From Actinomycetota bacterium (lineage in GTDB: Bacteria > Actinomycetota > Acidimicrobiia > IMCC26256 > PALSA-610), in the NCBI GenBank assembly GCA_052390615.1, contig JBQTGT010000010.1:4639-68638 (forward strand): a stretch of 64,000 bases of DNA, written 5' to 3'. The notes under the pieces were generated by a model. The model had not been told where the DNA came from. It saw only the letters and a list, made by a program, of their open reading frames with translations, and made no database searches. Shown one piece after another: positions 19,956 through 35,524 of this stretch (the first letter of the stretch is position 1; the number at the start of each line of letters is the position of its first letter). The translations under genes and the position numbers were made by a program.

Positions 19956-21956
19956 GTGGGAGTCGGCACGGCACACGGGCGCGTGCGCGCCCTCGACGGC
20001 GTTCGGGGGCTCGCGGTTGCGGCAGTGCTGTGCTTCCACGCCGAGTTCGGCTTCGCTTCGGGCGGCTTCCTCGGCGTCAGCGCCTTCTTCACCCTCTCCG
20101 GCTTCCTGATCACGAGCCTGCTGCTCACCGAACATCAGGCGACGGGCCGGATCGCACTCGGTGCGTTCTGGGCCCGCCGCGCGCGCCGCCTTCTGCCCGC
20201 TGCCGCGGTCGCGCTGTTCGGCGTGCTCGTGTACGGCGCGACGATCGCGACCACCGACCAACTTGGTGACCTGCGCGGCGACATCCTCTCTGCGGTCGGT
20301 TACGTCGCAAACTGGCGGTTCGAGGCGAGCGGAAACGAGTACTCCGAGCTGTTCGAAGCGCCGTCACCCGTACTGCACTTCTGGTCGCTGGCGATCGAGG
20401 AGCAGTTCTATGCGTTGTTCCCGCTCTTCGTCGTCGGTGCGATCGCGCTCGGCCGGGGCCGCACTCGCGCCCTGACGTGGATGCTTGCGGCCGGGATTGC
20501 CGCATCGGTCCTGGCCACCGTGCTCGCCCGTGACACCAGCCGCGTCTACTACGGCACCGACACCCGCGCGTCCGAGCTGTTGGTCGGCGCGCTCCTCGCG
20601 TGCGTGCTCTTTCACCGGTCGCTCCCCACTTCGAAAGCCGCCCGTTCGATCGTCGGCACTGCCGGCGCGCTCGCGCTGGCAGTGCTCACGTGTTGGTGGG
20701 TCACGGTCGACCAAGGCGACGAGTGGTTGTACCGAGGCGGGTTCGCAGTCCACGGCGCGCTCGTCGCGGTGGTGCTCGTCGCCGCGCTCTCCGGCACGCG
20801 CGTCGCACGCGCACTTGGCGCTTCCCCGCTCGTCGGGCTCGGATGCATCTCCTACGGGGTGTATCTGTATCACTGGCCGATCTTCTTGTGGCTGTCGCCC
20901 GAGCGCACCGGCCTCGCGGCCGCGTCGCTATTCGCGTTGCGTGTCGCGTGCACGCTCGCGTGCGCGATCGCCTCGTACTACTTCGTCGAACAGCCCATCC
21001 GGACGGGGCGCCGCATCCGCGGTTCGTGGCCTCGGCTCGTGGCGCCCGCCGCGACCGGCGCGCTCGTCGTGGCGTTGATCGCGGTGACGGCGTCGCCACC
21101 GGCGCCCGCATTTCGGCTCGAGGCGGTACAAGCGCATGCGCCGGTCGCGGCCGACGCGCGGGTTGCGCTCGTCCCGATTGCGGAGACTCCGACCCCAGCA
21201 CCGGCGACCGCTCCCGCCGCGGTCGTGCTCGCGCCGTTCCACCGACCGCTCGATGCGCCGCGACAGCTGCGCGTGATGGTCGTAGGCGACTCCGTGGGGC
21301 TCTCGCTCGGACGCGGACTCGAGTTATGGGGCGAGGAGACGGGACGCGCGGTGGTCCGCAACGAGGGGATGCTGTGGTGTGCGCTCGGTCGCGACTTACC
21401 GCGCATCGCGGGCTACGGCCCTGACGAGCAAGGCGCAGGCTGTAACGAATGGGACCGGCGTTGGACGCGCGCGATCGATCGGTTCGACCCCGATGTCGTC
21501 GTCGTGTTGTTCACACTCTGGGAGATGTCGTTGCGCCAGCTCCCGGGCACCGAGGAGTTCGTCGGTCCGGGTAACCCTGGTCTCGACGCGTGGCAGCTCG
21601 GCGAGTACCAAGCCGCCGCCGACGTGTTGTCGCAGCGCGGCGCGGCCGTGGCGTGGCTCTCAGTCCCGTGCGCCCAAACCGACACGAGCACGCCGGGCAC
21701 TGCAATTGCGTTGGTCAATCGCACGGTCACCGAGCTCGACCGCTCGCGCCGCGCGGTGCGGGCGCTGGATCTTGACGGTGCGCTGTGCCCGGACGGGGAG
21801 TTCGTGCGCGCGTTCGGCGGCGTCGACCCCGCGCGCCCCGACGGCTGGCACTTCTCCGACGATGGTGCGATCGCTGTCGCGCGCTGGATCATGCCGCAGG
21901 TGTTCGGCGAGGTCCCGATTCCGGAGCTGGCGGAACCACCGCACCGCGCGCGCTAG
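19956..21956 (+). CDS. Acyltransferase-3 (OafA/YrhL-like) membrane domain fused to a C-terminal SGNH-type domain
   Basis: Contains LDGVRGLAVAAVLCFH, FFTLSGFLIT and HFWSLAIEEQFY, followed by MVVGDSVG (GDS block) and a C-terminal GWHFSDDG. Confidence 0.8.
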   Translation: MGVGTAHGRVRALDGVRGLAVAAVLCFHAEFGFASGGFLGVSAFFTLSGFLITSLLLTEHQATGRIALGAFWARRARRLLPAAAVALFGVLVYGATIATTDQLGDLRGDILSAVGYVANWRFEASGNEYSELFEAPSPVLHFWSLAIEEQFYALFPLFVVGAIALGRGRTRALTWMLAAGIAASVLATVLARDTSRVYYGTDTRASELLVGALLACVLFHRSLPTSKAARSIVGTAGALALAVLTCWWVTVDQGDEWLYRGGFAVHGALVAVVLVAALSGTRVARALGASPLVGLGCISYGVYLYHWPIFLWLSPERTGLAAASLFALRVACTLACAIASYYFVEQPIRTGRRIRGSWPRLVAPAATGALVVALIAVTASPPAPAFRLEAVQAHAPVAADARVALVPIAETPTPAPATAPAAVVLAPFHRPLDAPRQLRVMVVGDSVGLSLGRGLELWGEETGRAVVRNEGMLWCALGRDLPRIAGYGPDEQGAGCNEWDRRWTRAIDRFDPDVVVVLFTLWEMSLRQLPGTEEFVGPGNPGLDAWQLGEYQAAADVLSQRGAAVAWLSVPCAQTDTSTPGTAIALVNRTVTELDRSRRAVRALDLDGALCPDGEFVRAFGGVDPARPDGWHFSDDGAIAVARWIMPQVFGEVPIPELAEPPHRAR

Positions 21957-22014: not shown

Positions 22015-22113
22015 ATGATGAGGATCCGACGGCAGCGCGTTGACCGCGGCAGCTAGATGTCGAGCGGCACGCCGCGAGCACGATGCCGAGGAGCGGCACC
22101 ACGGTGCGGACAC

Positions 22114-22626
22114 TCACTCTATCGGTACCGCCCGGACCAACGGCACCGGCTCGGCGAAGCCGCGGACGAACACCGGCCCGAGCGGTTCGTAGTCGACGCC
22201 GGGCAACGCGCCGACCTCGACCGCGGTCGCTTCCGACAACAGCACCTCGCCCGGCCCGGCGAGATCCACGATACGCGACGCGAGGTTCACGTCACGGCCG
22301 ACGATGTCGTCACCGCGCTGGCGGGGACAGCCCCAATGCATGCCGATGCGCACCCACAACGGCAGGTCGTCGTCACTGTCGCCCTCGAATTGCTGTTGGA
22401 GTCGAAGACAGGTCCGGAGCGCCTCACGGGCATCGTCGAACCACAACAGCAGGCCATCGCCGAGCTCCTTCACGACGCGACTGCACTCGGGCAACGACGC
22501 CCGCACGAGCTGTTCCTGGCGTTCGACGAGCGCGAGCGCGACATCGTCACCGTGCGTGTCGGTGAACTCGGTGAACCCGACGATGTCGGTGAACACGATT
22601 GCCCCGCTGGTCGTTGTCACCGGCAT
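22114..22626 (-). CDS. Stand-alone class III adenylate/guanylate cyclase catalytic domain (170 aa, no sensor domain)
   Basis: Contains IVFTDIVGFTEF, KELGDGLLLWF, VRIGMHWG and GRDVNLASRI. The start ATG overlaps the upstream gene by 10 nt. Confidence 0.85.
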   Translation of the reverse strand: MPVTTTSGAIVFTDIVGFTEFTDTHGDDVALALVERQEQLVRASLPECSRVVKELGDGLLLWFDDAREALRTCLRLQQQFEGDSDDDLPLWVRIGMHWGCPRQRGDDIVGRDVNLASRIVDLAGPGEVLLSEATAVEVGALPGVDYEPLGPVFVRGFAEPVPLVRAVPIE

Positions 22627-23297
22627 GCGACTCGAATCGTGCCGCTGACGGTCTTCACCTCGACCTGACCGTCAGTGCCCTGTGCGCAATCGCAGCGCAC
22701 CGAGCCGCTCAGCGACTTCAGGCGAGTGGCCGGAGCACGCCGCTCGGGCACGGTCACCTCGACGGTGCCCGACACGCTCTTCACCGCGACGCGGCCCGTC
22801 GCCGTCGCGCCGATCCTGACGGTGCCGCTCACCGTCTTCATCTCCGCGCCGTCAACTTCGTCGGCGCGGATCGATCCCGATACAGCGGCGACGGCGGCGT
22901 GCGCGGCATGGCCGATCTCGACGCTCCCACTCACCACGACCACACGGCAGCCGCCCTCGCACACCCCGACCGTCACGCTCCCGGAGTGGGTGCGGGCATC
23001 GATCTCGCTCGCGTGTTCAACGCGAATGCTCCCGCTCTTGCTGGCAACCCTGATTCCGGCGACCACCCCGCGTACCTCGACCGACCCGCTCGCGGTGCCG
23101 ATCACGACGTCGGCGCCCGCGGGAATGCGCACGTCCAGCGCCTTCGAACCACCCTTCGCGCCACGTACGAGGACGGTGCCGTCGGGCCGGGCTTCGACTT
23201 CGCCGCCCTGCACTGCAATCTCGGCCCCGGGATCGGCGTGCACGTGCACGGCACCGCTGCGATTCTCGATGCGAAGGCGCGCAACCTGTGCGTTCAC
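22617..23297 (-). CDS. DUF4097-type beta-strand repeat protein (putative adhesin fold)
   Basis: Nine repeats of the (V/K/H/L)SG(S/T)(V/I)x(V/I) motif spaced ~20 aa apart. GTG start at 23295-23297. Confidence 0.7.
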   Translation of the reverse strand: MNAQVARLRIENRSGAVHVHADPGAEIAVQGGEVEARPDGTVLVRGAKGGSKALDVRIPAGADVVIGTASGSVEVRGVVAGIRVASKSGSIRVEHASEIDARTHSGSVTVGVCEGGCRVVVVSGSVEIGHAAHAAVAAVSGSIRADEVDGAEMKTVSGTVRIGATATGRVAVKSVSGTVEVTVPERRAPATRLKSLSGSVRCDCAQGTDGQVEVKTVSGTIRVACR

Positions 23298-23311
23298 GGG
23301 CGGTGAGCCTA

Positions 23312-23752
23312 ATGTCGCCTTCGATGGCCATGAGCGACACCGAACAACGGGAATGGCGGGAGCGCATGCGTGACGTCATGGTGCGAACGCGCTTCATCGC
23401 CGCGATGGGCACCGTCGTCGAAGAATGGGGCGACGACGGCGTCCGGCTGCGGGTTCCGTTCGCCGAGCACCTCACGAACGATGGCAAGGAGTACCACGGC
23501 GGCGCGATCGCGGCGTTGATGGACACTGCCGGCGCGTCGGCGGTGTGGGCCGGGCACGACTTCGATCGCGGGCTCCGGGCGTCGACGGTCTCCATGACCG
23601 TGAACTACACCGGGCGCGCGCAAGGTGACTTGATCGCGATCGCGCGCTGCGTCAAGCGCGGCCGGGACACGCATTTCTCCGAGATCCGCGTCGAGGACCC
23701 ACAGGGCACGCTCGTCGCGACCGGAACCCTCGTCTACCGCATCACTCCGTAG
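23312..23752 (+). CDS. PaaI-family hotdog-fold thioesterase
   Basis: Contains YHGGAIAALMDTAGASAV and STVSMTVNY. The ATG at 23312 is preceded by GGTGAG. Confidence 0.8.
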   Translation: MSPSMAMSDTEQREWRERMRDVMVRTRFIAAMGTVVEEWGDDGVRLRVPFAEHLTNDGKEYHGGAIAALMDTAGASAVWAGHDFDRGLRASTVSMTVNYTGRAQGDLIAIARCVKRGRDTHFSEIRVEDPQGTLVATGTLVYRITP

Positions 23753-23910: not shown

Positions 23911-24525
23911 ATGACGGCAGCTCCCTTGCGCAGCGGACGGGCGACCGACGGTCGCAGCGCCCGGTCGCAGCGGACGCGGCTCGCCGTTGTCGATGCGCTG
24001 CTCGATCTGCTGCGCGCCGGCAACCCCCGGCCGACCGCCAAGGAGATCGCCGAGCGCGCGGGCGTGTCGCTCCGTTCGGTATACGTCCACTTCGACGACC
24101 TCGACGACCTGTTCGTGGCCGCCGCACGCCGCCAGATCCAGTTGGTGCGAGACCTGATCGTCGTCGTCCCGGCAACCGGTTCGGTCGCGTCGCGGGCCGA
24201 GACGATGATGCGCGTCCGCAGCCAGATCTTCGAACAGATCGGGCCGGTGCGGCGCGCGGCCGAGCTCCAGGAGCCCTTCTCGGCCGCGCTCGCCGCTCGG
24301 CTCCGCGAAATCCGCGACGCGGGGCGCAACGACCTGGAACGCGTGTTTGCCGCCGAGCTCGACCGCCTCGCCTCCGACGAGCGCGTGCGCCGCCTGGCGG
24401 TGCTCGACACGCTGTGCGGATCGATCACCTGGGACCAGCTGCGCCGGAACTCAAAGCTCGAGGTCGCCGCGGCATGCGCCGCGGTCGTCGAGGCCATGAT
24501 CGCGGTCCTGGAACCGCGATCATGA
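23911..24525 (+). CDS. TetR/AcrR family transcriptional regulator
   Basis: N-terminal HTH region TAKEIAERAGVSLRSVYVHFDDLDDLF with a helical C-terminal ligand domain. Confidence 0.85.
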   Translation: MTAAPLRSGRATDGRSARSQRTRLAVVDALLDLLRAGNPRPTAKEIAERAGVSLRSVYVHFDDLDDLFVAAARRQIQLVRDLIVVVPATGSVASRAETMMRVRSQIFEQIGPVRRAAELQEPFSAALAARLREIRDAGRNDLERVFAAELDRLASDERVRRLAVLDTLCGSITWDQLRRNSKLEVAAACAAVVEAMIAVLEPRS

Positions 24526-26867
24526 GCGCGCTCGCGCTGACACTCCGCCGCAGCGAGAATCGTGAACGGGTCGCCCCGATCGCGGGCGCGATCGGGGTTG
24601 GCGCGACGGTCGTGTTGCTCGTCAGCGAATCTTCATTCCGGTTCGCGCTGGCGCTGCTCGCGGTCGCGCTCATCGGGTTGCTGGCGTTCGACCTTCTCGC
24701 CGAAGGAGCGCTCGCGCGCGCGACGGCACTCGTCCCGCTGCTCGCGCTGCTCGCACTCGCGGAGACGTTCTGGTTGCAGGGCGACGCCATGCGCCCCGAC
24801 GTCGGCGTGATCCTCCAAGGCGCGCTGGTGGGCGCGCTGAGCGCGCTCCTCGCCGTCGGTCTGGCGCTCGTCTACCGCGCCAACCGGGTGATCAACTTCG
24901 CCCAAGGCGACCTCGGTGCCGTACCCGCCGTCCTCGCCATCCTGCTCCTCGCGGGCGACGCGCCCGGCGGCGCCCCCGATTGGATGACCGGCCTCCCCTA
25001 CGTCGTCGTGCTGGTCGTCGGTCTGGCGGCAGCGATCCTGCTCGGCTTCCTCGTCGAGCGTCTGATCGTCAACCGGTTCGTTCGGGCACCGCGCCTCGTC
25101 CTCACCGTCGCCACCATCGGCGTTGCGCAAGTGCTCACCGGCCTCGCGCTCTTCATGCCGCGGTGGTTCGGTTTCAAATCGCTCATCGTCCCCGATGTCC
25201 GTCCGCCGTTCGAATGGCAGTGGGAAGTCGGCGGGACGATCTTCCACGAGAACGACCTCATCGTCATGATCGCGGTCCCGTTCATCCTCGCGGGCCTGAC
25301 CGCCTTCCTCCGGTACTCGCGCGTCGGTATCGCGATCCGGGCAACGGCCGAGCGCTCCGACCGGGCCGCGTCCTTGGGTGTCCCGACCGGGCGCATTCAA
25401 ACCAGCGTGTGGGTCATCACGACGATCCTCGCGTTTGTCACCGTGTTTCTCCGTGCCGGCGTCGCGAGCTTCCCGATCGGATCTGCGCTCGGGGTGACGG
25501 TCCTCATCCGCGCGTTGGCAGCAGTCGTGATCGGCCGGCTGGAGGATTACCCGCGTATCGCGTTGGCCGCGCTCGCACTTGGCGTCGTCGAACAAGCGGT
25601 CGTGTTCGACACCGGTCGCGACCTGTACGTGTTTCCAGTCCTGTTCGCGATCGTCGTCGTCGCGATGACGTTGCACCGCCGCCGACGCGGGAGCCGCGTC
25701 GAGGATCAGGCCGTGTCGAGCTGGCAGGCCGCTCGCGAGCTGCGACCGGTCCCCCGCGAGCTGCGATCGCTGCCCGAGGTACAGATCGCCCGTGGCGGCA
25801 TCCTCGGCGCAATCGCGGTGTTCCTCATGACGCTGCCGCTGTGGATGTCGGGCTCGAACCTCAGCATCACCACCGACACCGGTATCATCGCGATCATCGC
25901 CGTCTCGCTCGTCATTCTCACGGGCTGGGCCGGTCACGTGAGCCTCGGCCAGATGGCGTTCGCGGGAGTCGGCGGCGCCGTCAGCGCGTGGATCACCCAA
26001 ACCGCCGAACTGGACTTCGGCTTCGCGCTCCTCTGCGCGGGGCTGGTCGGCGCCGCCGTCACCGTCGTCGTCGGGATCCCGGCCGCGCGCGCGGGTGGGC
26101 TCACGCTCGCGGTCTCGACGCTCGCACTCGCTGCCGCAGTGATGTATTGCCTGTTGAACCCCGATTTTTTCGGGTGGCTCCCTCGCGGCCGTTTCGATCG
26201 GGACCCCGAGCTGTTCGGGCGCGTCGAGATTGCCTCGCAAATGAGCTTCTACTACATCACGCTCGGCGTGCTCGCGTTGAGCATCGCGGTCGCGCTCCGC
26301 ATCCGTCACACTCGGACCGGCCGCGTCCTCATCGCACTGCGCGAGAACCCGCGCGCGGCGCAAGCGTACGGCGTGAACACGACGCGCACGATGCTCGCCG
26401 CGTTCGCCTTCTCCGGCTTCATCGCCGCGATGGCGGGGGCACTGTCCGTGCACCATATGCACGCGATCCCGCTGAACTTCTTCGGCCACCCGTTCTCGCC
26501 CGAAGCGAGCGTCGTCGTGTTCGCCACCGTCGTGATCGGCGGGCTCGCGTCGATCCCCGGCGCCGTCCTGGGCGCGGTCTATGTCTACACGGTGAAGTAC
26601 CACCTGCCCGAGGAGTGGGAGTTCCTCGCGACCGGGTTCGGGCTGCTCATCATCTTGTTGCTCCTCCCGGGCGGGCTCGGCGCCGCACTCGCCGAGGTGC
26701 GCGACGCGCTCTTGCGGTGGCGGGCGCGTGCGCGCGGGATCGTGGTACCGAGCTTGCTCGCAGACCGCCGCGTCGAAGCCGTGGAGGTCACGCCGGCGAT
26801 GGCGGCCGCGGTCGCGGAAGCGGTCGAGCTCCCGCAGTTCGAAGAGATCGCCGACATCCGCCAGTGA
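24522..26867 (+). CDS. Fused LivH-like + LivM-like branched-chain/HAAT ABC permease
   Basis: The ATG overlaps the TetR stop (ATGA). The first half has VYRANRVINFAQGDLGAVPA (LivH-type). The second half has LTGWAGHVSLGQMAFAGVGG (LivM-type). Total 781 aa. Confidence 0.85.
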   Translation: MSALALTLRRSENRERVAPIAGAIGVGATVVLLVSESSFRFALALLAVALIGLLAFDLLAEGALARATALVPLLALLALAETFWLQGDAMRPDVGVILQGALVGALSALLAVGLALVYRANRVINFAQGDLGAVPAVLAILLLAGDAPGGAPDWMTGLPYVVVLVVGLAAAILLGFLVERLIVNRFVRAPRLVLTVATIGVAQVLTGLALFMPRWFGFKSLIVPDVRPPFEWQWEVGGTIFHENDLIVMIAVPFILAGLTAFLRYSRVGIAIRATAERSDRAASLGVPTGRIQTSVWVITTILAFVTVFLRAGVASFPIGSALGVTVLIRALAAVVIGRLEDYPRIALAALALGVVEQAVVFDTGRDLYVFPVLFAIVVVAMTLHRRRRGSRVEDQAVSSWQAARELRPVPRELRSLPEVQIARGGILGAIAVFLMTLPLWMSGSNLSITTDTGIIAIIAVSLVILTGWAGHVSLGQMAFAGVGGAVSAWITQTAELDFGFALLCAGLVGAAVTVVVGIPAARAGGLTLAVSTLALAAAVMYCLLNPDFFGWLPRGRFDRDPELFGRVEIASQMSFYYITLGVLALSIAVALRIRHTRTGRVLIALRENPRAAQAYGVNTTRTMLAAFAFSGFIAAMAGALSVHHMHAIPLNFFGHPFSPEASVVVFATVVIGGLASIPGAVLGAVYVYTVKYHLPEEWEFLATGFGLLIILLLLPGGLGAALAEVRDALLRWRARARGIVVPSLLADRRVEAVEVTPAMAAAVAEAVELPQFEEIADIRQ

Positions 26868-26907: not shown

Positions 26908-29900
26908 GTGACCACCGGAGGTGTCGCGGACGGCCGCGAGGCACTGTTCACGCTCGGGCGCCTGACCATGCACAAGCCGCGCTCGCCGCGGCGCTACCTT
27001 GCCGAGATCACCGCCGGGCAGGCGGCGTTCCCGCTGCTCGTCCTGTTCGGGCTCAACGCGGTCGACGAGCTCGACCGCACGGTGTTCGGCATCCTCGGAC
27101 CCGAGATCCGCGATCACTTCGGCCTGAGCAACCAGGGCTACCTCTCGATCATCGCATTGACGTTGCTCGGCGGATTGCTGTTGGAAGTCCCGCTCGCGTT
27201 CTACGCCGACCGCGTGCCCCGCGCCCGCATCGCCGTGACTGGCGCCGCGATCTGGGCAGTGTTCGGCGTGCTCACCGGCCTCGCAACGACGGTGCTCGTG
27301 CTCGTCATCGCGCGCGCGGGAACCGGGCTGGGTCGAGCCGTCGTGACTCCGACGCACAACTCGTTGCTCGCGGACTACTACCCGATCGAAGTCCGGCCGG
27401 AGATTTACGGTTTCCACCGGATGGCCAACGCGGCGGGCCAATTCGCGGGCCCGCTGATCGGTGGCGTACTCGCAGAGCTGTACGGCTGGCAGGTGCCGTT
27501 CTTCGTCTTCGTCGTGCCGACTCTGATCCTCGTGGTCATCGGGCTCCGTCTCACCGATCCCGGACGCGGGCACTTCGAGCGCGCCGCGGGCGGGGCGGCA
27601 GCCGACATCGTCTCCACCGAGGACACACCGCCGTCGTGGGCGGAGTCGGTGCGGATCCTGTGGCAAGTCCGCACATTGCGTCGGATCTGGTTTTCGCTCC
27701 CGTTCCTTGCCGCGTCGATCATCGGGCTCATCACGCTGACGTCGTTGTACTACGACGAGGTCTTCGGGCTTTCCGAGTCCGAGCGCGGGTTCGTCGCGGC
27801 CATGGCCGAACCGGCGCAGTTCTTCGGCATCTTGCTCGGGATCCCGCTCGCGTCGCGGTTGATGTTGCGCGACCCCGGCGCCGGGTTGCGCTACCTGTCG
27901 CTGATCGCCGTGGCCATCGCCGGCGCGTGGGTCGTGCTCGCCACCGCCCCGGTACTCGGCGTTGCGATCGCGGCCAACGTTGCGATCTCCGGCTTGGCCG
28001 CGCTGCTCGCGCCCGGCATCTTCGCGTCGTTGTCGCTCGCAATCCCGCCGAAGGTGCGTTCGCTCGGATACTCGATGGCGAGCCTGTTCGTCCTGCCCGG
28101 CCTCATCGTGTTGTACATCGTCGGCGGGATCGCCGACAGGTACGGCATCCGCCAGGGCCTCATGGTGATGGTCCCGGTCTTCCTCCTCGGCGCGTTCATC
28201 CTGTCGTCCGCGTCCATGTTCGTGAAGGCCGACATCAACCGCGTCTGGACGTCGACCGCCGCGCAGGCCGAGGTGAAGTATCAGCGCGCACGCGGTGAAG
28301 TAAAGCTGCTGCTCGTGCGCAACGTCGACGTGAGTTACGACGACGTCCAAGTCCTCTTCGGCGTCAACCTCGAGGTCGACGAAGGTGAGATCATCGCGTT
28401 GCTCGGCACGAACGGGGCCGGAAAGTCGACGTTGTTGAAGGCGATCGCGGGGATCGTCCCGGCTGACGCCGGCGCCATCGTCTTCGACGGGCGCGACGCC
28501 ACGTACGCGCCGCCGTACGAGATCGCGGCACGCGGCATCGTCATGGTGCCGGGCGGCCAGGGCGTGTTCCCGTCGCTATCGGTCGCGGAAAACCTGCGCA
28601 TCGCGGGTTGGCTCGACAAAGACCGCCGCAGCCGTGCCGACGCCGTCGAGCGCGCGCTCCAGCGGTTCCCTGTGCTGCGCGACCGGGTGCAGGAGCCGGC
28701 CGCCAATCTCTCGGGCGGCCAGCAGCAGATGTTGACGCTCGCGATGGCATTGCTGTCGCGTCCGCGGCTGCTGATGATCGACGAGCTGTCGCTGGGATTG
28801 GCGCCGTCGATCGTGGCGGAGCTGCTCGACGCCGTGAAGCTGCTGAAAGAACAGGGCACGACGGTCATCCTCGTCGAGCAGTCGGTGAACGTCGCACTCA
28901 CGATCGCCGACACCGCGTACTTCATGGAGAAAGGCGAGATCCGGTTCAACGGGCCGACCGCCGAGCTGCTCGCCCGGCCCGACGTCCTGCGGTCGGTATT
29001 CCTGGAAGGCGCCGCGACCGTCGATCTCACCCCCACCGATCAGGCGATACGCACTCGCGACGCCACGCCGGCAGGGCCACCGTCGGGGAACGGCTCGAAA
29101 CCGCAGCCCCGTCTTTCCGTCGAAAGCGTCGCCAAACGCTTCGGTGGCATCGCCGCGTTGCACGACGTCTCCTTCGACGTCCATGCGGGCGAGATCCTCG
29201 GCTTCCTCGGGCCGAACGGCGCCGGCAAGACGACGCTGTTCGACGTGCTGTCGGGCTTCTTGGCGGCCGATCAGGGCGACGTGCTCCTCGACGGCACGTC
29301 GATCGTGCGGCTCGGGCCCGACGCGCGTGCTCGCCGCGGCCTCGGCCGTTCGTTCCAGGACGGCCGGCTGTTCCCGGCACTGACCGTCTCCGAGGCGATC
29401 GCGGTCGCGTGCGAACGCAGCGTCGACGTGCGCGATCCGGTCGCGGCCGCGTTGTTCATGCCGTCGGTCGCGGCTTCCGAGGAGAAGGTCGCCGTTCGCG
29501 TCGAGGAGTTGATCGAGCTTCTCGGTCTCGGCGCGTACCACGACAAGTACGTGCGCGAGCTGTCGACCGGCAGCCGCCGCGTCGTCGATCTGGCGTGCGT
29601 TCTGGCCCACCGACCGAGCGTGCTGTTGCTGGACGAACCGTCTTCTGGCATCGCGCAGCGCGAGACCGAAGCACTGGGGCCGTTGTTGTTGCGCATCCGC
29701 GCCATGACGGGCGCGTGCCTGCTCGTCATCGAGCACGACGTTCCGCTCATCACATCGATCGCCGATCGGATGGTCGCACTCGACCTCGGTGAGCTCGTCG
29801 CGATCGGATCACCGTCCGAGGTCGTACACGACCCGCAGGTCGTCGCCTCGTACCTCGGAAACACAGAAGCTGTCGTGGCCCGCAGCGGAATACGCGTCGG

Positions 29901-29931
29901 GCCCTCTGACGGGGGGGAACCCAATGGCTGA
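26908..29931 (+). CDS. MFS-like 12-TM domain fused to two ABC ATPase domains (LivF-like then LivG-like)
   Basis: GTG at 26908 with GAAGGGGG 5 nt upstream and a continuous frame. Motifs in order: MFS-type LAFYADRVPRARI loop; Walker A GTNGAGKST, LSGGQQQ, LLMIDELSLGL; then GPNGAGKTT, LSTGSRR, LLLDEPSSGI. Confidence 0.8.
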   Translation: MTTGGVADGREALFTLGRLTMHKPRSPRRYLAEITAGQAAFPLLVLFGLNAVDELDRTVFGILGPEIRDHFGLSNQGYLSIIALTLLGGLLLEVPLAFYADRVPRARIAVTGAAIWAVFGVLTGLATTVLVLVIARAGTGLGRAVVTPTHNSLLADYYPIEVRPEIYGFHRMANAAGQFAGPLIGGVLAELYGWQVPFFVFVVPTLILVVIGLRLTDPGRGHFERAAGGAAADIVSTEDTPPSWAESVRILWQVRTLRRIWFSLPFLAASIIGLITLTSLYYDEVFGLSESERGFVAAMAEPAQFFGILLGIPLASRLMLRDPGAGLRYLSLIAVAIAGAWVVLATAPVLGVAIAANVAISGLAALLAPGIFASLSLAIPPKVRSLGYSMASLFVLPGLIVLYIVGGIADRYGIRQGLMVMVPVFLLGAFILSSASMFVKADINRVWTSTAAQAEVKYQRARGEVKLLLVRNVDVSYDDVQVLFGVNLEVDEGEIIALLGTNGAGKSTLLKAIAGIVPADAGAIVFDGRDATYAPPYEIAARGIVMVPGGQGVFPSLSVAENLRIAGWLDKDRRSRADAVERALQRFPVLRDRVQEPAANLSGGQQQMLTLAMALLSRPRLLMIDELSLGLAPSIVAELLDAVKLLKEQGTTVILVEQSVNVALTIADTAYFMEKGEIRFNGPTAELLARPDVLRSVFLEGAATVDLTPTDQAIRTRDATPAGPPSGNGSKPQPRLSVESVAKRFGGIAALHDVSFDVHAGEILGFLGPNGAGKTTLFDVLSGFLAADQGDVLLDGTSIVRLGPDARARRGLGRSFQDGRLFPALTVSEAIAVACERSVDVRDPVAAALFMPSVAASEEKVAVRVEELIELLGLGAYHDKYVRELSTGSRRVVDLACVLAHRPSVLLLDEPSSGIAQRETEALGPLLLRIRAMTGACLLVIEHDVPLITSIADRMVALDLGELVAIGSPSEVVHDPQVVASYLGNTEAVVARSGIRVGPSDGGEPNG

Positions 29932-31675
29932 GGGAGGTAGTCGAGCCAAGCTGGCGAAGCGCTACGGGCCGATCGTGCTCGTGGTCGCGCTCGTCGGCGG
30001 CGTGATCGCGTTCGCGGGGGATGGCGGCGATGACGACGATGTCGTGCCGACCGACACGACCCCCGACGGTACGGGTGACGGCGACGGCCCGGCCAACCCC
30101 GATCTGCCCATGACCTTCCAGGAGGCCCAAGCGGCGGGCACCGAGGAGGACATCGACTGGGGACCGGGGTGCGACACCGAGCTCGGGCGCATGATGATCC
30201 CGATCACCAGCGCGGCCCCGTGCGTCGAGCCGTGGGACGAATCGCAGGAGAACGGCGGCGCGACTTCGGAGCAAGGCGTGACCGCCGAAGAGATCGTCGT
30301 CGCGGTCTACCAAGGCCGGCCCGATCCGCTCGCGCAGGCGATCGTCGAAGGTGCGGGTGCTGACACCGATCCGAACGACATTCGCCAGGTCGCGGTGAAC
30401 TACCTGACGATGTTCGAAGACGTGTACGAGACGTACGGCCGGCGGTTGCGCATCGAGGTGATCGAGGCGACCGGTGGCCCCGAAGACGCCGTCGCCGCGC
30501 TCGCCGACGCGCAGAAGGTCATCGACCTTGAGCCTTTCGCCGCCATCGGCGGTCCGCCGCAGACGTCGGTGTACTGGCAGGAGCTCGTGAACGCCGGCAT
30601 CGTGTGCGTCGGGATCTGCTCATTGGCGGAACCGTGGGACGTCGTCGAGGAGGCGGCGCCGTACCTGTGGCCGACGGGCCCCTCACCTGACCAGGCCGAC
30701 ATGCACCTCGTTGAGATGCTCGAGAAGCAGATCATCGGCCAGCCGGTCTCGTTCGCGGGTGATGCCGCGCTGAACGGCGAGGAGCGCGTGTACGGCTTCA
30801 TCCAGGCCGAACGGATCGCGGGTGAGTTCACCGAACGCAACGAGGCCTTCCTCGACTCGCTCCGCGACAAGGGCGCGAACATCGCGACCACGTTCACCTA
30901 CCTGTTCGACGTCAGTCGGGCGGGCGAAACGGCGACCAATGCGATCGCGCGCATGAAGGAAGCGGGTGTCACCACCGTCATCATGAGCGTGGACCCGATC
31001 ATTCCGTCCAACATCACCAAGGAAGCAACTGCCCAGAACTACGCGCCCGAGTGGATCCTCGGCCCGAACGTGTTGATGGACACCACGATCTTCGGACGCC
31101 AGACCGACCAAGAACAGTGGTCGCACATGATTGGCCTGTCACTGCCGGCGGCGCGCGCCGAGCGGGAGCTGGGCGACTCGTACCTCTCTCATCTGTGGTA
31201 CTTCGGAGAGGAACCGCCCGTGAACAGCCAAGGGGTGTTCTTCCCGGGACCGGAGCGGTTGCTCCTGGGCATCCACCTCGCGGGCCCGAACCTCGATCCG
31301 GAGAACTTCCGCGACGGCCTGTTCCGGTACCCGGCCAGCGAGCAGGGCGTCACGTACGCGACCGACTCGTGGGGCGACGACCTCTGGGGCCGGCCCGACT
31401 ACAACGCGGCCGACGACGTCGCGACGATCTGGTGGGACCCCGACGCAGAGGGCGAGGACGAAGCCGGCAACATGAGCGTGCCGGGCGAGGTCGGTAAGAC
31501 CGGCATGGTGCGCTACGTCGACGGCGGCCGCCGGTACATGCCGGGCGACTGGCCGACCGATCCGATCCCGTGGTTCGAGGAGGAAGGCTCGGTCACGATC
31601 TACGACGAGAGGCCGGACGCGGCGCCCGACTATCCGCCGTGGCCCGGCTCCCCCGGCGCCGCCGCCGCCGGATGA
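29924..31675 (+). CDS. Membrane-anchored solute-binding protein (distant type I periplasmic-binding fold), 583 aa
   Basis: The ATG overlaps the upstream gene by 8 nt. It has an N-terminal TM (IVLVVALVGGVIAFA), then an acidic GDGGDDDD...DGTGDGDGP linker, then a large soluble domain. The operon position fits a binding protein. Confidence 0.65.
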   Translation: MAEGGSRAKLAKRYGPIVLVVALVGGVIAFAGDGGDDDDVVPTDTTPDGTGDGDGPANPDLPMTFQEAQAAGTEEDIDWGPGCDTELGRMMIPITSAAPCVEPWDESQENGGATSEQGVTAEEIVVAVYQGRPDPLAQAIVEGAGADTDPNDIRQVAVNYLTMFEDVYETYGRRLRIEVIEATGGPEDAVAALADAQKVIDLEPFAAIGGPPQTSVYWQELVNAGIVCVGICSLAEPWDVVEEAAPYLWPTGPSPDQADMHLVEMLEKQIIGQPVSFAGDAALNGEERVYGFIQAERIAGEFTERNEAFLDSLRDKGANIATTFTYLFDVSRAGETATNAIARMKEAGVTTVIMSVDPIIPSNITKEATAQNYAPEWILGPNVLMDTTIFGRQTDQEQWSHMIGLSLPAARAERELGDSYLSHLWYFGEEPPVNSQGVFFPGPERLLLGIHLAGPNLDPENFRDGLFRYPASEQGVTYATDSWGDDLWGRPDYNAADDVATIWWDPDAEGEDEAGNMSVPGEVGKTGMVRYVDGGRRYMPGDWPTDPIPWFEEEGSVTIYDERPDAAPDYPPWPGSPGAAAAG

Positions 31676-31689
31676 ACGACCTTCCCGCC

Positions 31690-31738
31690 GAACTGGCGTG
31701 ACAAAAGCGCGCTACACGCGCTTCAGTCACGCCAGTTC
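31690..31738. terminator. Long compound hairpin at convergent gene ends
   Basis: 13-bp outer stem GAACTGGCGTGAC/GTCACGCCAGTTC and 7-bp inner stem AAGCGCG/CGCGCTT with a 5-nt loop. The right arm covers the last codons (NPANWRD) of the minus-strand gene. Confidence 0.55.
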
Positions 31739-32364
31739 GCAGGGTTGGACGCCACCCAGCCTGACCCCGGCTCGTAGCGGCGTACGACGCGCGCGGGGAT
31801 ACCCGCGACGACTGAACAGCTCGGGATCACGCCGCCGGTGACGATCGCGCCGGCCGCGACGACGACGTGCTCGCCGATTCGGGCGCCCGGCAGCACGACT
31901 GCGCCGTGGCCGAGCCACGAGCCCGAGCCGATCGTGACCGGCTCGTTCTGCCACATCTGCACGCCGATCGGCAGCGCGACGTCCTCGTACCCGTGGTTCT
32001 GGTCGGTGATGTAGACGTAGTGACCGGTCCAGATGTCGTCGCCGATGTGGATCCGCTCGTGACCGACGATGCCGATGCCCTTGCCGAGCATGCACCGATC
32101 GCCGATCGTGATGATCGGCCCGCCGCGCTCGTGCATCTGTGACGGCATGCCCGCGCTGAGGCTCGCGAGGGGCCCGATCGTCGTGTTGTCGCCGATCGAG
32201 ATCCGCCCCTCACCGAAGATCACCGTGGGCGGGAACGCGACGAGGCTGCCCGCGCCGAACGCGCCGAACTTGCGAGCCCGGCCGTGGCGCGGACCGAGCG
32301 CGCCGTAGCGCACGACGCGTTCCCACGTCGCGTGGATGAAGTCTCCGCCGATGCGACCCAACAT
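31723..32364 (-). CDS. Hexapeptide-repeat (LbH) acyl/acetyltransferase
   Basis: Repeated [LIV]G-x4 hexapeptides: IGDRCMLGKGIGIVG, IGSGSWLGHGAVVLPGARIGEHVVVAAGAIV. Confidence 0.8.
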   Translation of the reverse strand: MLGRIGGDFIHATWERVVRYGALGPRHGRARKFGAFGAGSLVAFPPTVIFGEGRISIGDNTTIGPLASLSAGMPSQMHERGGPIITIGDRCMLGKGIGIVGHERIHIGDDIWTGHYVYITDQNHGYEDVALPIGVQMWQNEPVTIGSGSWLGHGAVVLPGARIGEHVVVAAGAIVTGGVIPSCSVVAGIPARVVRRYEPGSGWVASNPANWRD

Positions 32365-32419
32365 CGGCCGCGACCCTACCGACTCGACCGCGACCGGTAC
32401 TTCTCGTAGGTTCGACTCG

Positions 32420-33445
32420 ATGCGAGCTCGGCCGCCGCGTATCGGGGTGCTGTACGACTATCCGCAAGGCGACGGCTTGTTCGTCGACACGCTCCGCCTG
32501 GGACTCGACGCGGGGGGTGCGCGTGACGTCGACCTCGTCGAGCGCGAGGTACTGGGCCTGCCGGCGGGCACGCGCGAAGCAATCGTGGAGGGTTTCGAGG
32601 CGCTGGTCGCGGACCGAGTCGCCGCGATCGTCGGACCGTCGATCTCCGACAACGCACTCGTTGCCGCGCCGCTCGCGGACGCGCACGAGATGCCGTCGAT
32701 CAACTACTCCGGCAGCGAGCAGACGCGATCCGAGTACATGTTCCACTACCAAGTGGGTTCACTCGAGGAGGAGCCACCCGTCCTTGCGCAGCGAATGGCT
32801 GACCGCGGCCTCACGCGTGCGGCGGTCCTGTACGACGATTCCGAAGTCGGTCACGGCTACCAGCGCGCGTTCGAGCTAGCGCGGCACCGCTTCGGGATCA
32901 CGATCGCGGCCTCGGCGTTTGTCGCGCCGCTGATCGAGGACGCCGAGACGATCCTGGATGATCTCCGCGCGGTCGCTCCCGACGCGCTGGTCTATTTCGG
33001 GTTGGGTGTCGCGTCGCGCGCTGTCGCCGTCGCGCGCGCCGCACTGGCGTGGGACATTCCGGTGCTCGCGAACTCGGCACTGATGTTCGGCTACGCGCGC
33101 CCCGACTGGCGCGACGGGTACGCGGGCTGGGAGTACATCGATACGATCGCGGATGACAACACGGTGCGCGCCGAGCTGCGGGCGACGTCGAAGCGGGCCG
33201 CGGGCGGGCCGATCGGATGCGCCGCGTACGACATCGGCCGCATTGTCGGCGCCGCGATCGCGTCGTGTCACGACAACGACGCGGGTCCCACGGTCGCAGC
33301 AGCGCTGCGGCGCGTGAAACGACTCCCCGCCGCGAGCGGCTACGACGGCACGCTCATGGGCTTCGGCCAGTGGGACCACGCCGCGCTGAAGGGCCACTTT
33401 CTCGTGTTGCGCGAGTGGCGCGCGGGTCGCAGCGTTCAGGTCTAG
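32420..33445 (+). CDS. LivK/AmiC-like type I ligand-binding protein without a signal peptide
   Basis: It starts MRARPPRIGVLYDYP with no hydrophobic leader. AAIVGPSISDNALV and AAVLYDDSEVGHGY are typical of Peripla_BP_6-type proteins. Confidence 0.7.
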   Translation: MRARPPRIGVLYDYPQGDGLFVDTLRLGLDAGGARDVDLVEREVLGLPAGTREAIVEGFEALVADRVAAIVGPSISDNALVAAPLADAHEMPSINYSGSEQTRSEYMFHYQVGSLEEEPPVLAQRMADRGLTRAAVLYDDSEVGHGYQRAFELARHRFGITIAASAFVAPLIEDAETILDDLRAVAPDALVYFGLGVASRAVAVARAALAWDIPVLANSALMFGYARPDWRDGYAGWEYIDTIADDNTVRAELRATSKRAAGGPIGCAAYDIGRIVGAAIASCHDNDAGPTVAAALRRVKRLPAASGYDGTLMGFGQWDHAALKGHFLVLREWRAGRSVQV

Positions 33446-33457
33446 TGTGCGGCCGCG

Positions 33458-34546
33458 ATGGCCACGGATCGGGATCAGGCGCGCGCGGAAGTCGCCCGGC
33501 GGGGACATTCGAACCGGGCGGTCGGGAGCATCGGTCGGCACGCGTTCGCCCAGATGCCTCCGCAGATGGTCGAGCGCGCGCGCACGCAACTGGCCCGGCT
33601 GTTCACCGATGCTCCGTGGACGGCGCCCGACGACGCCGCGCTCGCCGCGCTGGTCGGGCCGGGCGCAGGCTGGGTGGTCGAGGAGCTCGAGCCGGGTCTG
33701 ACCATCTCCCACGGTTGGCGCGGCGGCGCGTTCCGCGTCGACGTTGACTGCCGATCGGGTGATGAGGCACCGGTCGTGGAGCAACCGGCCGCGGCGGGCG
33801 CGCCCGCGCATCCGCGGAATCTGGGCGACACGTTCGACGAGCCGCTCGTGCTCGAGTCGGGCCGCGCGCGCGAGCAAGCGCGCTTTCTCACCGGTCCGCG
33901 CCCGGGCCCGGCGGTGCACGCCACGCGCGACCAGCAGGGCGTCGACCTCGCCGTACGCGTGCTCTTCGAGACGTTCTCGCCAATCACGGCGATCGATCTC
34001 GAGCCGGGTGTCGTCACGGTGACGATCGCCGACCGCGCGCAGTGGCCCGCGTGCCTGCTCGGCGTCTTCGACACGGTCGCGGCCGCCTTCCTCCCGCCGC
34101 GCCCGCCGAATCCCGACCGCCAGCTCGAGCGGGCGGAGGCGGCGATCGCCCGCCTCGACCCCACCGACTCCCGCGACCTGGCAAAGATCCTGGACGCGAC
34201 GACGTCACCCGACGCGGCGTTCCGTCTCGTCGCGGTCGCGCGACTCACGCTCGCGGAGACGGTCGTCGCACAACGGCCGTGGGATCGCGCGCTCGAGGAC
34301 TCGTCGCGTCCGGTGCGCCGCGCGGCCGCGCGGGCCATGGCGCTCGCCGACGCGCCCCCGCCGCGAGCGTTGTGCGAGCGCGCGCTCGGCGACAAGGACC
34401 CGTGCGTCCGGTACTACGGCTTGTGGGGGCTGGCTCGGCTCGGCGCGATCCCGAGCATGGACGCGGTGGAGCGGTGCCGCGCCGACGAGGACCTTCGGGT
34501 TCGTCTCGCCGCCGACGCGGCCGCACTGGGAATCCCCGTTCCGTAG
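33458..34546 (+). CDS. Hypothetical protein with C-terminal HEAT-like repeats
   Basis: The C-terminus (DSSRPVRRAAARAMA...DKDPCVRYYGLWGLARLG...DEDLRVRLAA) looks like PBS-lyase/HEAT repeats. The N-terminal part is unassigned. Confidence 0.55.
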   Translation: MATDRDQARAEVARRGHSNRAVGSIGRHAFAQMPPQMVERARTQLARLFTDAPWTAPDDAALAALVGPGAGWVVEELEPGLTISHGWRGGAFRVDVDCRSGDEAPVVEQPAAAGAPAHPRNLGDTFDEPLVLESGRAREQARFLTGPRPGPAVHATRDQQGVDLAVRVLFETFSPITAIDLEPGVVTVTIADRAQWPACLLGVFDTVAAAFLPPRPPNPDRQLERAEAAIARLDPTDSRDLAKILDATTSPDAAFRLVAVARLTLAETVVAQRPWDRALEDSSRPVRRAAARAMALADAPPPRALCERALGDKDPCVRYYGLWGLARLGAIPSMDAVERCRADEDLRVRLAADAAALGIPVP

Positions 34547-34597: not shown

Positions 34598-35524
34598 CTA
34601 CGCGGTCTTCTTCGAGCGGGCCGTCTTCTTCGCCGTCGCCTTCTTGGTCGCCCTGCGGGCGCGGGTTGCCTTCGCTTGGCCCTCGTCGGCCGCGTTGTCG
34701 GCATCGTCCGCGCGCGCACGGGCCGAGGTGCTCGGATGGCGGTCCTTCGCAGTCGCGGCCTTCGCCAGCGACGCCTCTAATGCGGCGACGAGATCGAGCA
34801 CCTTCGCGGGCGCTTCGACGGCTGGCTCGGCGACGATCTCCTCGCCCGCGGCCTTGCGCTGGATGAGGTCCAGCATCTGCTCGCGGAACTGGTCCGAATA
34901 CTTGCTCGGATCGAACATCTCGCTCGAGAGACTCTCGATGAGCTGGCGGGCCATGGCCAGCTCCTTCTCGGTCAGCTCGACGTGTTCGTCCGACAGCAAT
35001 GCTTCGCGCGGGACGACCTCGTCGGAATAGCGCATCGTCTCGATGCACAGCATCCCGTCGAGGGGACGGATCGCGACGAGCCGCTCCTTGGACCGCATCA
35101 CAATGCGTCCGACGGCGACCTTGTTGAGCTCGGCCATCGCTTCGGCGAGCAGCTGGTACGGCTTGAGACCCCGCGCGTCCGGCACGAGGTAATACGGTTG
35201 CTCGAAGTACAACGGGTCGATGTCGTCGAGATCGACAAACTCCTCGATATCGATCGTGTGGCCGCCCTTCGGACGCAAGGTCTGCATCTCATCGTCGTCG
35301 ACGATGACGTAGCGCCCCTTCGAGATCTCGTACCCGCGCTGGATGCGCTCGGGCGGGACCTCGTCACCCGAGGCTTCGGAAACCTTGCGGTACCGAATGC
35401 GGGCGCCGGTGTCGGCTTCGAGCTGGTTGAAGCTGACGTCCTTGCTCTTGGTGGCGCTAACCAGACGGACAGGTACTTGTACGAGGCCGAAGCTGATCGC
35501 CCCGGCCCAAATCGCGCTGGGCAT
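34598..35524 (-). CDS. ku: Non-homologous end-joining protein Ku
   Basis: Starts IWAGAISFGLVQVPVRL and contains YFEQPYYLVP, with a Lys/Ala-rich basic C-terminal tail as in actinobacterial Ku. Confidence 0.9.
   Translation of the reverse strand: MPSAIWAGAISFGLVQVPVRLVSATKSKDVSFNQLEADTGARIRYRKVSEASGDEVPPERIQRGYEISKGRYVIVDDDEMQTLRPKGGHTIDIEEFVDLDDIDPLYFEQPYYLVPDARGLKPYQLLAEAMAELNKVAVGRIVMRSKERLVAIRPLDGMLCIETMRYSDEVVPREALLSDEHVELTEKELAMARQLIESLSSEMFDPSKYSDQFREQMLDLIQRKAAGEEIVAEPAVEAPAKVLDLVAALEASLAKAATAKDRHPSTSARARADDADNAADEGQAKATRARRATKKATAKKTARSKKTA

Follow-up and report, generated by a model that had tools for sequence, protein, structure and literature searches.

Why would a secondary carrier be joined to the ATPases of an ATP-driven importer? 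The major facilitator superfamily (MFS) and the ATP-binding cassette (ABC) superfamily are the two largest transporter superfamilies and are taught as alternatives, one using the proton-motive force and the other ATP. We analysed a 64-kb stretch of DNA (the window) from an Actinomycetota bacterium of the class Acidimicrobiia, in which a single gene encodes an MFS domain followed by two ATPase domains that resemble LivF and LivG. Sequence comparisons indicate that the product of this fusion gene is the energy-coupling subunit of a four-gene transporter operon that is conserved in Acidimicrobiia. The gene and its parts are the following; the two ATPase domains are called nucleotide-binding domains 1 and 2 (NBD1 and NBD2).

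26908..29931, plus strand: the fusion gene, encoding MFS, LivF-like ATPase and LivG-like ATPase in one protein of 1007 amino acids
27028..28218, plus strand: MFS domain, residues 41-437, 12 transmembrane helices (TM1 to TM12), from MFS_1 and AlphaFold2
28222..28308, plus strand: linker, residues 439-467, a predicted long helix leading from TM12 to the first ATPase
28309..29019, plus strand: NBD1, the LivF/UrtE-like ATPase, residues 468-704, from NCBIfam and motifs
29113..29862, plus strand: NBD2, the LivG/UrtD-like ATPase, residues 736-985, from NCBIfam, BCA_ABC_TP_C and motifs

The frame runs without interruption from the GTG at 26908 to the TGA at 29929-29931. The mechanically called open reading frame (ORF) reaches further 5′, to a GTG at 26728. 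Since the product starting at 26908 is covered to 96-99% in alignments with homologues and a Shine-Dalgarno-like stretch, GAAGGGGG, lies directly 5′ of this GTG, 26908 is the likely start codon. Pfam finds MFS_1 (PF07690) at residues 48-387 with 128.7 bits (E 3e-37; cut-off 33.4 bits), covering profile positions 3-331 of 347, then two ABC_tran stretches and, at residues 963-985, the LivG-specific C-terminal motif BCA_ABC_TP_C. According to NCBIfam, residues 469-687 are UrtE/LivF-like and residues 736-985 UrtD/LivG-like. The motifs GTNGAGKST, LSGGQQQ, LLMIDELSLGL, GPNGAGKTT, LSTGSRR and LLLDEPSSGI are all present in the translation, and the catalytic core residues of both ATPase domains show no variation across 48 aligned homologues. 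In NBD1 the invariant residues are Walker A G500-T508, the signature L601-Q605, Walker B D625-E626 and the LivF-type E657-Q658; in NBD2 they are Walker A G768-T776, Q817, the signature LSTGSRR (885-891), D909-E910 and H943. The solved chain closest to the NBD1-NBD2 region is 1ji0 (E 9e-55), with the aligned query positions 3-234 corresponding to NBD1.

A preliminary description, made from the sequence alone, had claimed a single ORF of 1007 codons with an MFS-like domain and two HAAT-type ATPases, LivF-like before LivG-like, and had expected hmmscan to report MFS_1 and then two ABC_tran matches. Frame, Pfam and NCBIfam confirm this layout, together with all motifs it had quoted. Its further claim of a 12-helix, MFS-like N-terminus with a loop between two halves of six helices agrees with the MFS_1 score, which is far above the threshold, and with the 12-helix fold of an AlphaFold2 model of the fusion that was built on the alignment of 48 homologues. 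In this model, 12 transmembrane helices lie within residues 41-437 at a predicted local distance difference test (pLDDT) score of about 80-93 (AlphaFold2/DSSP), and a structured cytoplasmic central loop (213-254) divides them into six and six. Basic residues are concentrated in the N-terminus and in the even-numbered loops of the MFS domain. Because of this distribution and the twelve helices, the model is consistent with both MFS ends, and hence the ATPases, being cytoplasmic. The linker helix (439-461) has low confidence, with a pLDDT of about 52-61, and the spacer of ~30 residues between NBD1 and NBD2 is disordered (residues 700-731, pLDDT <50). Among close homologues, the linker residues D442, W447, Q453, R460 and K466 show no variation.

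Is this fusion a property of one assembly or of a lineage? When species-representative genomes were searched with the MFS domain, 26 related loci were obtained, all from metagenome-assembled genomes (MAGs) of Acidimicrobiia-type Actinomycetota. A metagenome scan yielded 523 relatives, from which we retained the 80 best loci. Frame and stops were examined in 106 related loci. MFS, NBD1 and NBD2 are all complete in 85 loci, and in every one of the 85 they form a single uninterrupted ORF; four seeming exceptions are alignments that extend beyond the natural stop codon. The fused LivH-LivM permease gene lies directly 5′ of the MFS gene in 78 of the 82 loci where the contig allows this to be seen, and the gene for the binding protein lies directly 3′ of the fusion gene in 62 of 65. 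In the 55 loci that contain all modules, the mean identity to the window is 71.5% for NBD1, 64.0% for NBD2 and 58.2% for the MFS domain, compared to 50.6% for LivH, 51.7% for LivM and 43.0% for the binding protein. Judged by these identities, the MFS domain evolves more slowly than the permease and appears to be strongly constrained.

The protein databases contain more than 120 clusters at 64-79% identity with equal length and identical Pfam domains, and altogether hundreds of clusters carry the fusion, labelled either 'MFS transporter' or 'branched-chain amino acid transport system ATP-binding protein'. In a second fused clade, the MFS identity is only about 32%; the named members of this clade are Microthrixaceae, Acidimicrobiales or Acidimicrobiia MAGs. 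Every match with a taxon name is from Acidimicrobiia or unclassified Actinomycetota. The comparisons thus indicate that the fusion is real, widely conserved in uncultured Acidimicrobiia, old and diversified within this class, where it forms two deeply diverged fused clades. One metagenomic entry, CAMDCI010000036.1 (L014), is titled 'MAG: Bifidobacterium breve' and contains a full operon of the Acidimicrobiia/acIV type with an MFS identity of 47%. It closely resembles loci of freshwater Actinomycetota MAGs, and the bin label is probably wrong or contaminated.

The remaining genes of the operon in the window are:

23911..24525, plus strand: TetR-like regulator (TetR_N 27.1 bits, cut-off 24)
24522..26867, plus strand: fused LivH-LivM permease (two BPD_transp_2 stretches, PF02653, 179 bits)
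29924..31675, plus strand: membrane-anchored substrate-binding protein of 583 amino acids, with a LivJ-like fold and extra elements (AlphaFold2, Foldseek)

The operon probably begins with the TetR-like gene, whose TGA and the start codon of the permease gene (ATG, 24522) overlap as ATGA. A TetR-like homologue is located directly 5′ of the permease gene in seven related loci, including L004, L009, L010, L011, L023 and L025. The fusion gene starts 40 nt past the end of the permease gene, and its last codons overlap the ATG of the binding-protein gene (29924). A scan for promoters and terminators gave no signal beyond chance; the stretch encoding the linker (28222..28308) likewise contains no stop and no terminator signal beyond chance. 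The fused LivH-LivM permease that had been proposed upstream is borne out by the two BPD_transp_2 domains. Residues 133-418 of its ORF are UrtB/LivH-like and residues 534-756 UrtC/LivM-like, all with NCBIfam scores far under the equivalog cut-offs. No chain in a copy of the PDB was matched by the permease of the window in a phmmer search.

The 583-amino-acid protein encoded 3′ of the fusion has no sequence match in Pfam, NCBIfam or a PDB profile search. Its AlphaFold2 model (pLDDT 88.6, predicted template modelling score (pTM) 0.86) has an N-terminal membrane helix at residues 9-31. Foldseek aligns the model with type-1 LivJ-like proteins (4eyg, 4evs, 4n03 and 2liv; Foldseek probability 1.0) at a target TM-score of about 0.6-0.7 and an identity of 10-15%. 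Judged by the model, the product of 29924-31675 appears to be the cognate, membrane-anchored substrate-binding protein of the importer. The ligands of the structurally matched proteins are aromatic acids, fatty acids, branched-chain amino acids or urea, and because they are chemically so diverse, the substrates of the system cannot be named. The family comprises 783 homologues of about 570-590 amino acids, most of them labelled 'hypothetical protein' and a few carrying PF13458 (Peripla_BP_6). The protein of the window contains a Gly/Asp/Thr-rich spacer and about 200 additional residues. In six metagenome loci (L058, L066, L079, L086, L087 and L104), the binding-protein gene is doubled or tripled directly 3′ of the fusion. 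The multiplied genes suggest that several substrates are delivered to one transporter.

With two BPD_transp_2 domains, two ATPases with invariant motifs and a LivJ-fold protein, the permease, the ATPase pair and the binding protein make up a complete importer of the HAAT type (TC 3.A.1.4) without the MFS domain. This importer proper is built from two chains rather than four, plus the binding protein, and the MFS is a fifth module. The preliminary description had seen a HAAT-type transporter in which an extra MFS module is attached covalently to the ATPase pair, and this architecture is supported. Going beyond that description, we find that the protein is not unique and that the next gene encodes the cognate binding protein, which completes the importer without the MFS.

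How does this system compare with known transporters? Like LivJ/LivK-LivHMGF of Escherichia coli (HAAT, TC 3.A.1.4), it has BPD_transp_2 permeases and LivF- and LivG-type ATPases, and it shares the E-Q that replaces the H-loop histidine in LivF, the LivG C-terminal motif and a type-1 binding protein with LivJ fold. In contrast to LivHMGF, LivH and LivM are fused here, the likewise fused LivF and LivG stand in reverse order (F then G), and the ATPase chain begins with a 12-helix MFS domain. The binding protein differs from LivJ/LivK in being about 200 residues larger, membrane-anchored and without a sequence-family match. NCBIfam equivalog scores stay under the cut-off for LivG (284, cut-off 362), LivF (259, cut-off 441) and LivH (75, cut-off 379). 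The best NCBIfam matches of both ATPase domains and of the permease halves are to UrtABCDE, with UrtB at 85 (cut-off 250), UrtC at 66 (cut-off 296), UrtD at 291 (cut-off 304) and UrtE at 312 (cut-off 286), the last being a whole-protein score from two matched stretches. In our view these stretches are the two ATPase domains, and the score would be inflated as a result. UrtABCDE has no MFS domain, and the UrtA models are unmatched by the binding protein found here. A urea transporter was rejected, with UrtB, UrtC and UrtD under the cut-off, no UrtA match and a pass for UrtE that is a whole-protein score. The two permease domains and the LivF and LivG ATPases with intact motifs are those of the HAAT family, and the binding protein agrees by fold only. 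By domain content the system belongs to this family and would work in the same way, but with scores far under the cut-offs it is an equivalog of neither LivHMGF nor UrtABCDE.

OppD/DppD of Mycobacterium tuberculosis (8wdb_D, 8j5r_D) likewise combine two ATPase domains of an actinobacterial importer in one chain and are the top Foldseek matches of the whole fusion model (E about 1e-20, over the tandem ATPases). Foldseek with the whole model returned tandem-ATPase matches only, none of them informative on the MFS domain. OppD/DppD belong to a peptide-importer ABC family and differ in carrying no membrane domain on the ATPase chain and in having separate permease subunits.

What kind of MFS protein has been joined to the importer? 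An exhaustive search with the MFS domain gave 337 cluster representatives at E <1e-30. Among the best 150 of these 337, we found full fusions of ~1000 residues (down to 32% identity), proteins with MFS and the first ATPase only, and free-standing proteins 420-470 residues long. In a quick neighbour-joining tree, fused and free forms are interleaved. In motif A (D101-R102-x-x-R105), D101 and R102 are present in 46 of 47 subfamily sequences and R105 in all 47, as is the TM4 arginine of motif B (R136). TM5 of the window protein contains a motif C-like G177-x3-G181-P182-x2-G185-G186, for which the subfamily frequencies are G 38/47, G 31/47 (A 13), P 36/47, A 31/47 and G 47/47. Of the acidic residues in TM1 (D53/E54/D56), D53 occurs in 41/47 and D56 in 43/47 sequences, and in the repeat of motif A in the TM8-TM9 loop P380 and R384 occur in 47/47. 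The TM1 motif L-N-x-V-D-E-x-D-R is distinctive, and D442 at the end of TM12 is a further shared hallmark; P65-x-I67-x-x-x-F71 in the extracytoplasmic TM1-TM2 segment and R293-G294 are highly conserved in the subfamily. The hallmark frequencies are about equal in fused and free members, and the comparison of the 47 sequences revealed no residue of the MFS core that sets the fused forms apart.

Motif A, the motif B arginine, the motif C-like GxxxGPxxGG and the TM1 acidic residues are shared with the MFS drug:H+ antiporters (DHA1/DHA2: EmrB, EfpA) and with Spns-type proteins; motif C is regarded as the signature of the MFS drug:H+ antiporters. The N-terminal half matches DHA2/EmrB, QepA, LfrA, EfpA and Spns (6e8j, E 6e-16; EfpA, E 3e-11). 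NCBIfam scores remain far under the cut-offs, and only the N-terminal half is aligned, with TIGR00711 (EmrB/DHA2; 49.4 vs 230) and TIGR00710 (Bcr/CflA; 31 vs 201). Unlike the DHA and Spns-type proteins, the domain forms a subfamily of its own with L-N-x-V-D-E-x-D-R: it resembles proton antiporters and is a member of no curated family. To our knowledge, none of the known DHA/Spns-type families is fused to ABC ATPases. A secondary-carrier- or channel-type membrane protein works with an ATPase in ArsB with ArsA and in KdpA with KdpB (KdpFABC), and carriers work with a binding protein in TRAP and TTT. ArsAB, KdpFABC and TRAP/TTT are functional analogies only; the families are unrelated, and none combines MFS with an ABC ATPase.

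Free members show how the domain can be organised apart from the fusion. One, with about 45% identity, adjoins genes for a MarR regulator and an ABC exporter, and others are located in unrelated genomic contexts. Because of these unrelated contexts, the subfamily can, as far as gene order tells, work on its own. The domain belongs to a dedicated MFS subfamily with members that are also encoded by separate genes, in the same type of operon or elsewhere. In one unfused locus (L123, 1-4688), the LivH-LivM gene is followed by a separate MFS gene (440 amino acids, overlapping start), a gap of 160 nt and a separate LivF-like gene, which lends support of the Rosetta-stone type to the MFS as part of the system. 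In two independent assemblies (L036, 3827-10286, and L037), two binding-protein genes come first and a stand-alone MFS gene (460 amino acids) lies between LivH-LivM and an MFS-LivF-LivG fusion of 968 amino acids, with all stops and starts overlapping. Judged by this arrangement, a single system can be served by two MFS modules. Because of the constraint on the domain, the gene order in the unfused locus and the variant with two MFS modules, we regard the MFS as a true component of the ABC system, as judged from these comparisons.

What, then, could the MFS domain do there? We tentatively favour a working carrier. The MFS domain would be an alternating-access, proton-coupled secondary carrier of the antiporter or exporter kind, held in the membrane beside LivH-LivM by the linker of about 30 residues to LivF. 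ATP hydrolysis by LivF-LivG would drive LivH-LivM, and the MFS would run its own proton-driven cycle on a metabolically related solute, which might arise as a by-product of the imported substrate, act as its counter-solute or be identical with it, then handled at another affinity. A fixed 1:1 stoichiometry, co-localisation and possibly mutual regulation would follow from the fusion. The retention of motif A, of the arginine in TM4 and of the acidic residues in TM1 suggests that the domain still cycles as a proton-coupled carrier. Motif C, the resemblance of the N-terminal half to DHA proteins and the regulatory contexts with TetR and MarR would make an antiporter or exporter the more likely type. 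We give a proton-coupled, antiporter- or exporter-like carrier that acts on a related solute next to LivH-LivM, with the ATPases serving LivH-LivM, a little less than an even chance.

Several points weigh against this reading. The best full-length family match is a family of symporters, ACS/D-galactonate (TIGR00893; 102.7 bits vs 395), so that the assignment as antiporter depends mainly on motif C and on matches of the N-terminal half. The arrangement of the domains is uncertain, with a pTM of 0.52 for the fusion model and a pLDDT of about 55 for the linker, and contact between MFS and LivH-LivM, the substrate and the direction of transport are all inferred. Covalent fusion is not needed for co-expression, and tethering for stoichiometry is a weak rationale. 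The subfamily tree is a quick neighbour-joining sketch. Some of the 'MFS-NBD1 only' and 'LivHM-MFS' proteins stem from frameshifted assemblies; the former have nine complete-looking representatives, and the one inspected (L032) has a frameshift inside NBD2.

Other explanations assign the MFS domain no transport of its own or deny the fusion. The apparent 'LivH-LivM-MFS' super-fusions P0376 and P0307 were discarded as evidence, and the frameshift-broken ABC genes downstream on the contig of P0376 show how an assembly, sequencing or gene-calling error might have joined an MFS gene to livF and livG. Against such an error, the fusion is read in one frame without a stop in all 85 independent loci, which come from many samples and assemblers, the G+C content is flat across the junction (0.67-0.73), and the linker residues are conserved at the protein level. 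The preliminary description had pointed to 28290-28330 as the place where a stop or frameshift could split the ORF; neither is present at the junction, and an artefact has next to no chance of being the explanation. A non-transporting MFS might alternatively serve as a passive anchor that holds the ATPase chain or stabilises the LivH-LivM complex. This would suit a lineage that favours fusions (LivH-LivM and LivF-LivG are both fused) and a domain for which no substrate can be named. However, an anchor of 12 helices would be costly, the residues of the conformational cycle and of proton coupling are kept at 87-100% across fused members, and the MFS is more conserved than the permease. Given the conserved carrier motifs, a carrier that still works is more plausible than a decayed scaffold, to which we allow a small chance.

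Two further explanations let the MFS communicate with the ATPases. As a sensor (transceptor), it might bind a cytoplasmic or external solute and switch the ATPase via the LivF linker, which we consider unlikely, though with a modest chance of being right; embedded in the membrane, it would then correspond to the regulatory domains that MalK, MetN, ModC or OpuA carry. ABC importers usually bear their regulatory domains on the ATPase subunit, and the MFS is fused straight to this subunit. The invariant residues of the linker helix in close homologues point the same way, and the conserved P65-x-I67-x-x-x-F71 and R293-G294 would fit recognition of a ligand or partner. Yet the free members keep the same residues without an attached ATPase, no residue of the MFS core is peculiar to the fused forms, the low confidence of the linker does not suggest a rigid transmission element, and the regulatory domains known from ABC importers are soluble and lie at the C-terminus. 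In a hybrid pump, LivF-LivG or the binding protein would also drive or feed the MFS, as in ArsA-ArsB or TRAP/TTT. The covalent link does run directly from TM12 to NBD1, MFS-bearing operons always include the binding-protein family, sometimes in two or three copies, and the outer-face elements of the MFS are conserved. In one locus (L039), a binding-protein gene directly precedes a stand-alone MFS gene, but this contig has just 2.2 kb and the gene order is incomplete. Moreover, the ATPases and the binding protein already find a complete partner in LivH-LivM, the model predicts a flexible linker, and subfamily members work without ATPases elsewhere; we know of no coupling helix for ABC ATPases in MFS carriers. 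We therefore see a slim chance for a hybrid pump, and an equally slim one that the MFS is coupled to the ABC machinery, either because ATP binding and hydrolysis in LivF-LivG drive or gate its alternating-access cycle via the TM12-NBD1 linker, which would turn a secondary carrier into a primary pump in the manner of ArsAB, or because the enlarged binding protein hands substrate to it.

The genes around the operon give the following picture. On the 5′ side, an Acyl_transf_3 and SGNH fusion (an OafA-like membrane acyltransferase) is encoded at 19956-21956 (plus strand), two ORFs of 203 and 232 amino acids without Pfam match lie within 22057-23373 (plus strand), and a 4HBT thioesterase is encoded at 23288-23752 (plus strand), which is adjacent in L004 too. 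On the 3′ side are genes for a hexapeptide-repeat acetyltransferase (31723-32364, minus strand) and an orphan Peripla_BP_6 binding protein (32336-33445, plus strand), a pair that is likewise found 3′ of the operon in L004, L010, L011 and L025. These are followed by a gene for a 362-amino-acid protein (33458-34546, plus strand) with a borderline HEAT_2 match only, a homologue of which lies 3′ of the operon in L025, and by one for a Ku70/Ku80 beta-barrel protein (34598-35524, minus strand; 170 bits), a homologue of the bacterial non-homologous end-joining protein Ku. An Rfam scan of both strands of the whole window found no family at gathering score.

Full-text literature searches found no paper describing an MFS-LivF/LivG fusion, in line with the preliminary description, which could not place the architecture in a described family. 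The fusion architecture is new to the literature as searched; it is widespread in one bacterial class, and the proteins are already in the databases. Acidimicrobiia are abundant in soils, lakes and oceans. If the MFS and the ABC machinery are indeed coupled, the system would be without precedent, either as an MFS-ABC hybrid transporter or as an MFS that depends on a binding protein. Since the permease matched no chain in the PDB copy, the natural two-chain complex may suit cryo-EM. Resolving the link would assign a function to a large MFS subfamily, to an unannotated family of binding proteins of ~580 residues and to hundreds of proteins labelled 'MFS transporter'. That the MFS has stayed covalently joined within an otherwise complete importer, in two or more paralogues that diverged long ago, implies that some functional link between the two is under selection. 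The link might lie in regulation, in uptake with dual affinity, in a coupling of import to export or in true energetic coupling, and working it out could reveal a new principle of transporter organisation.

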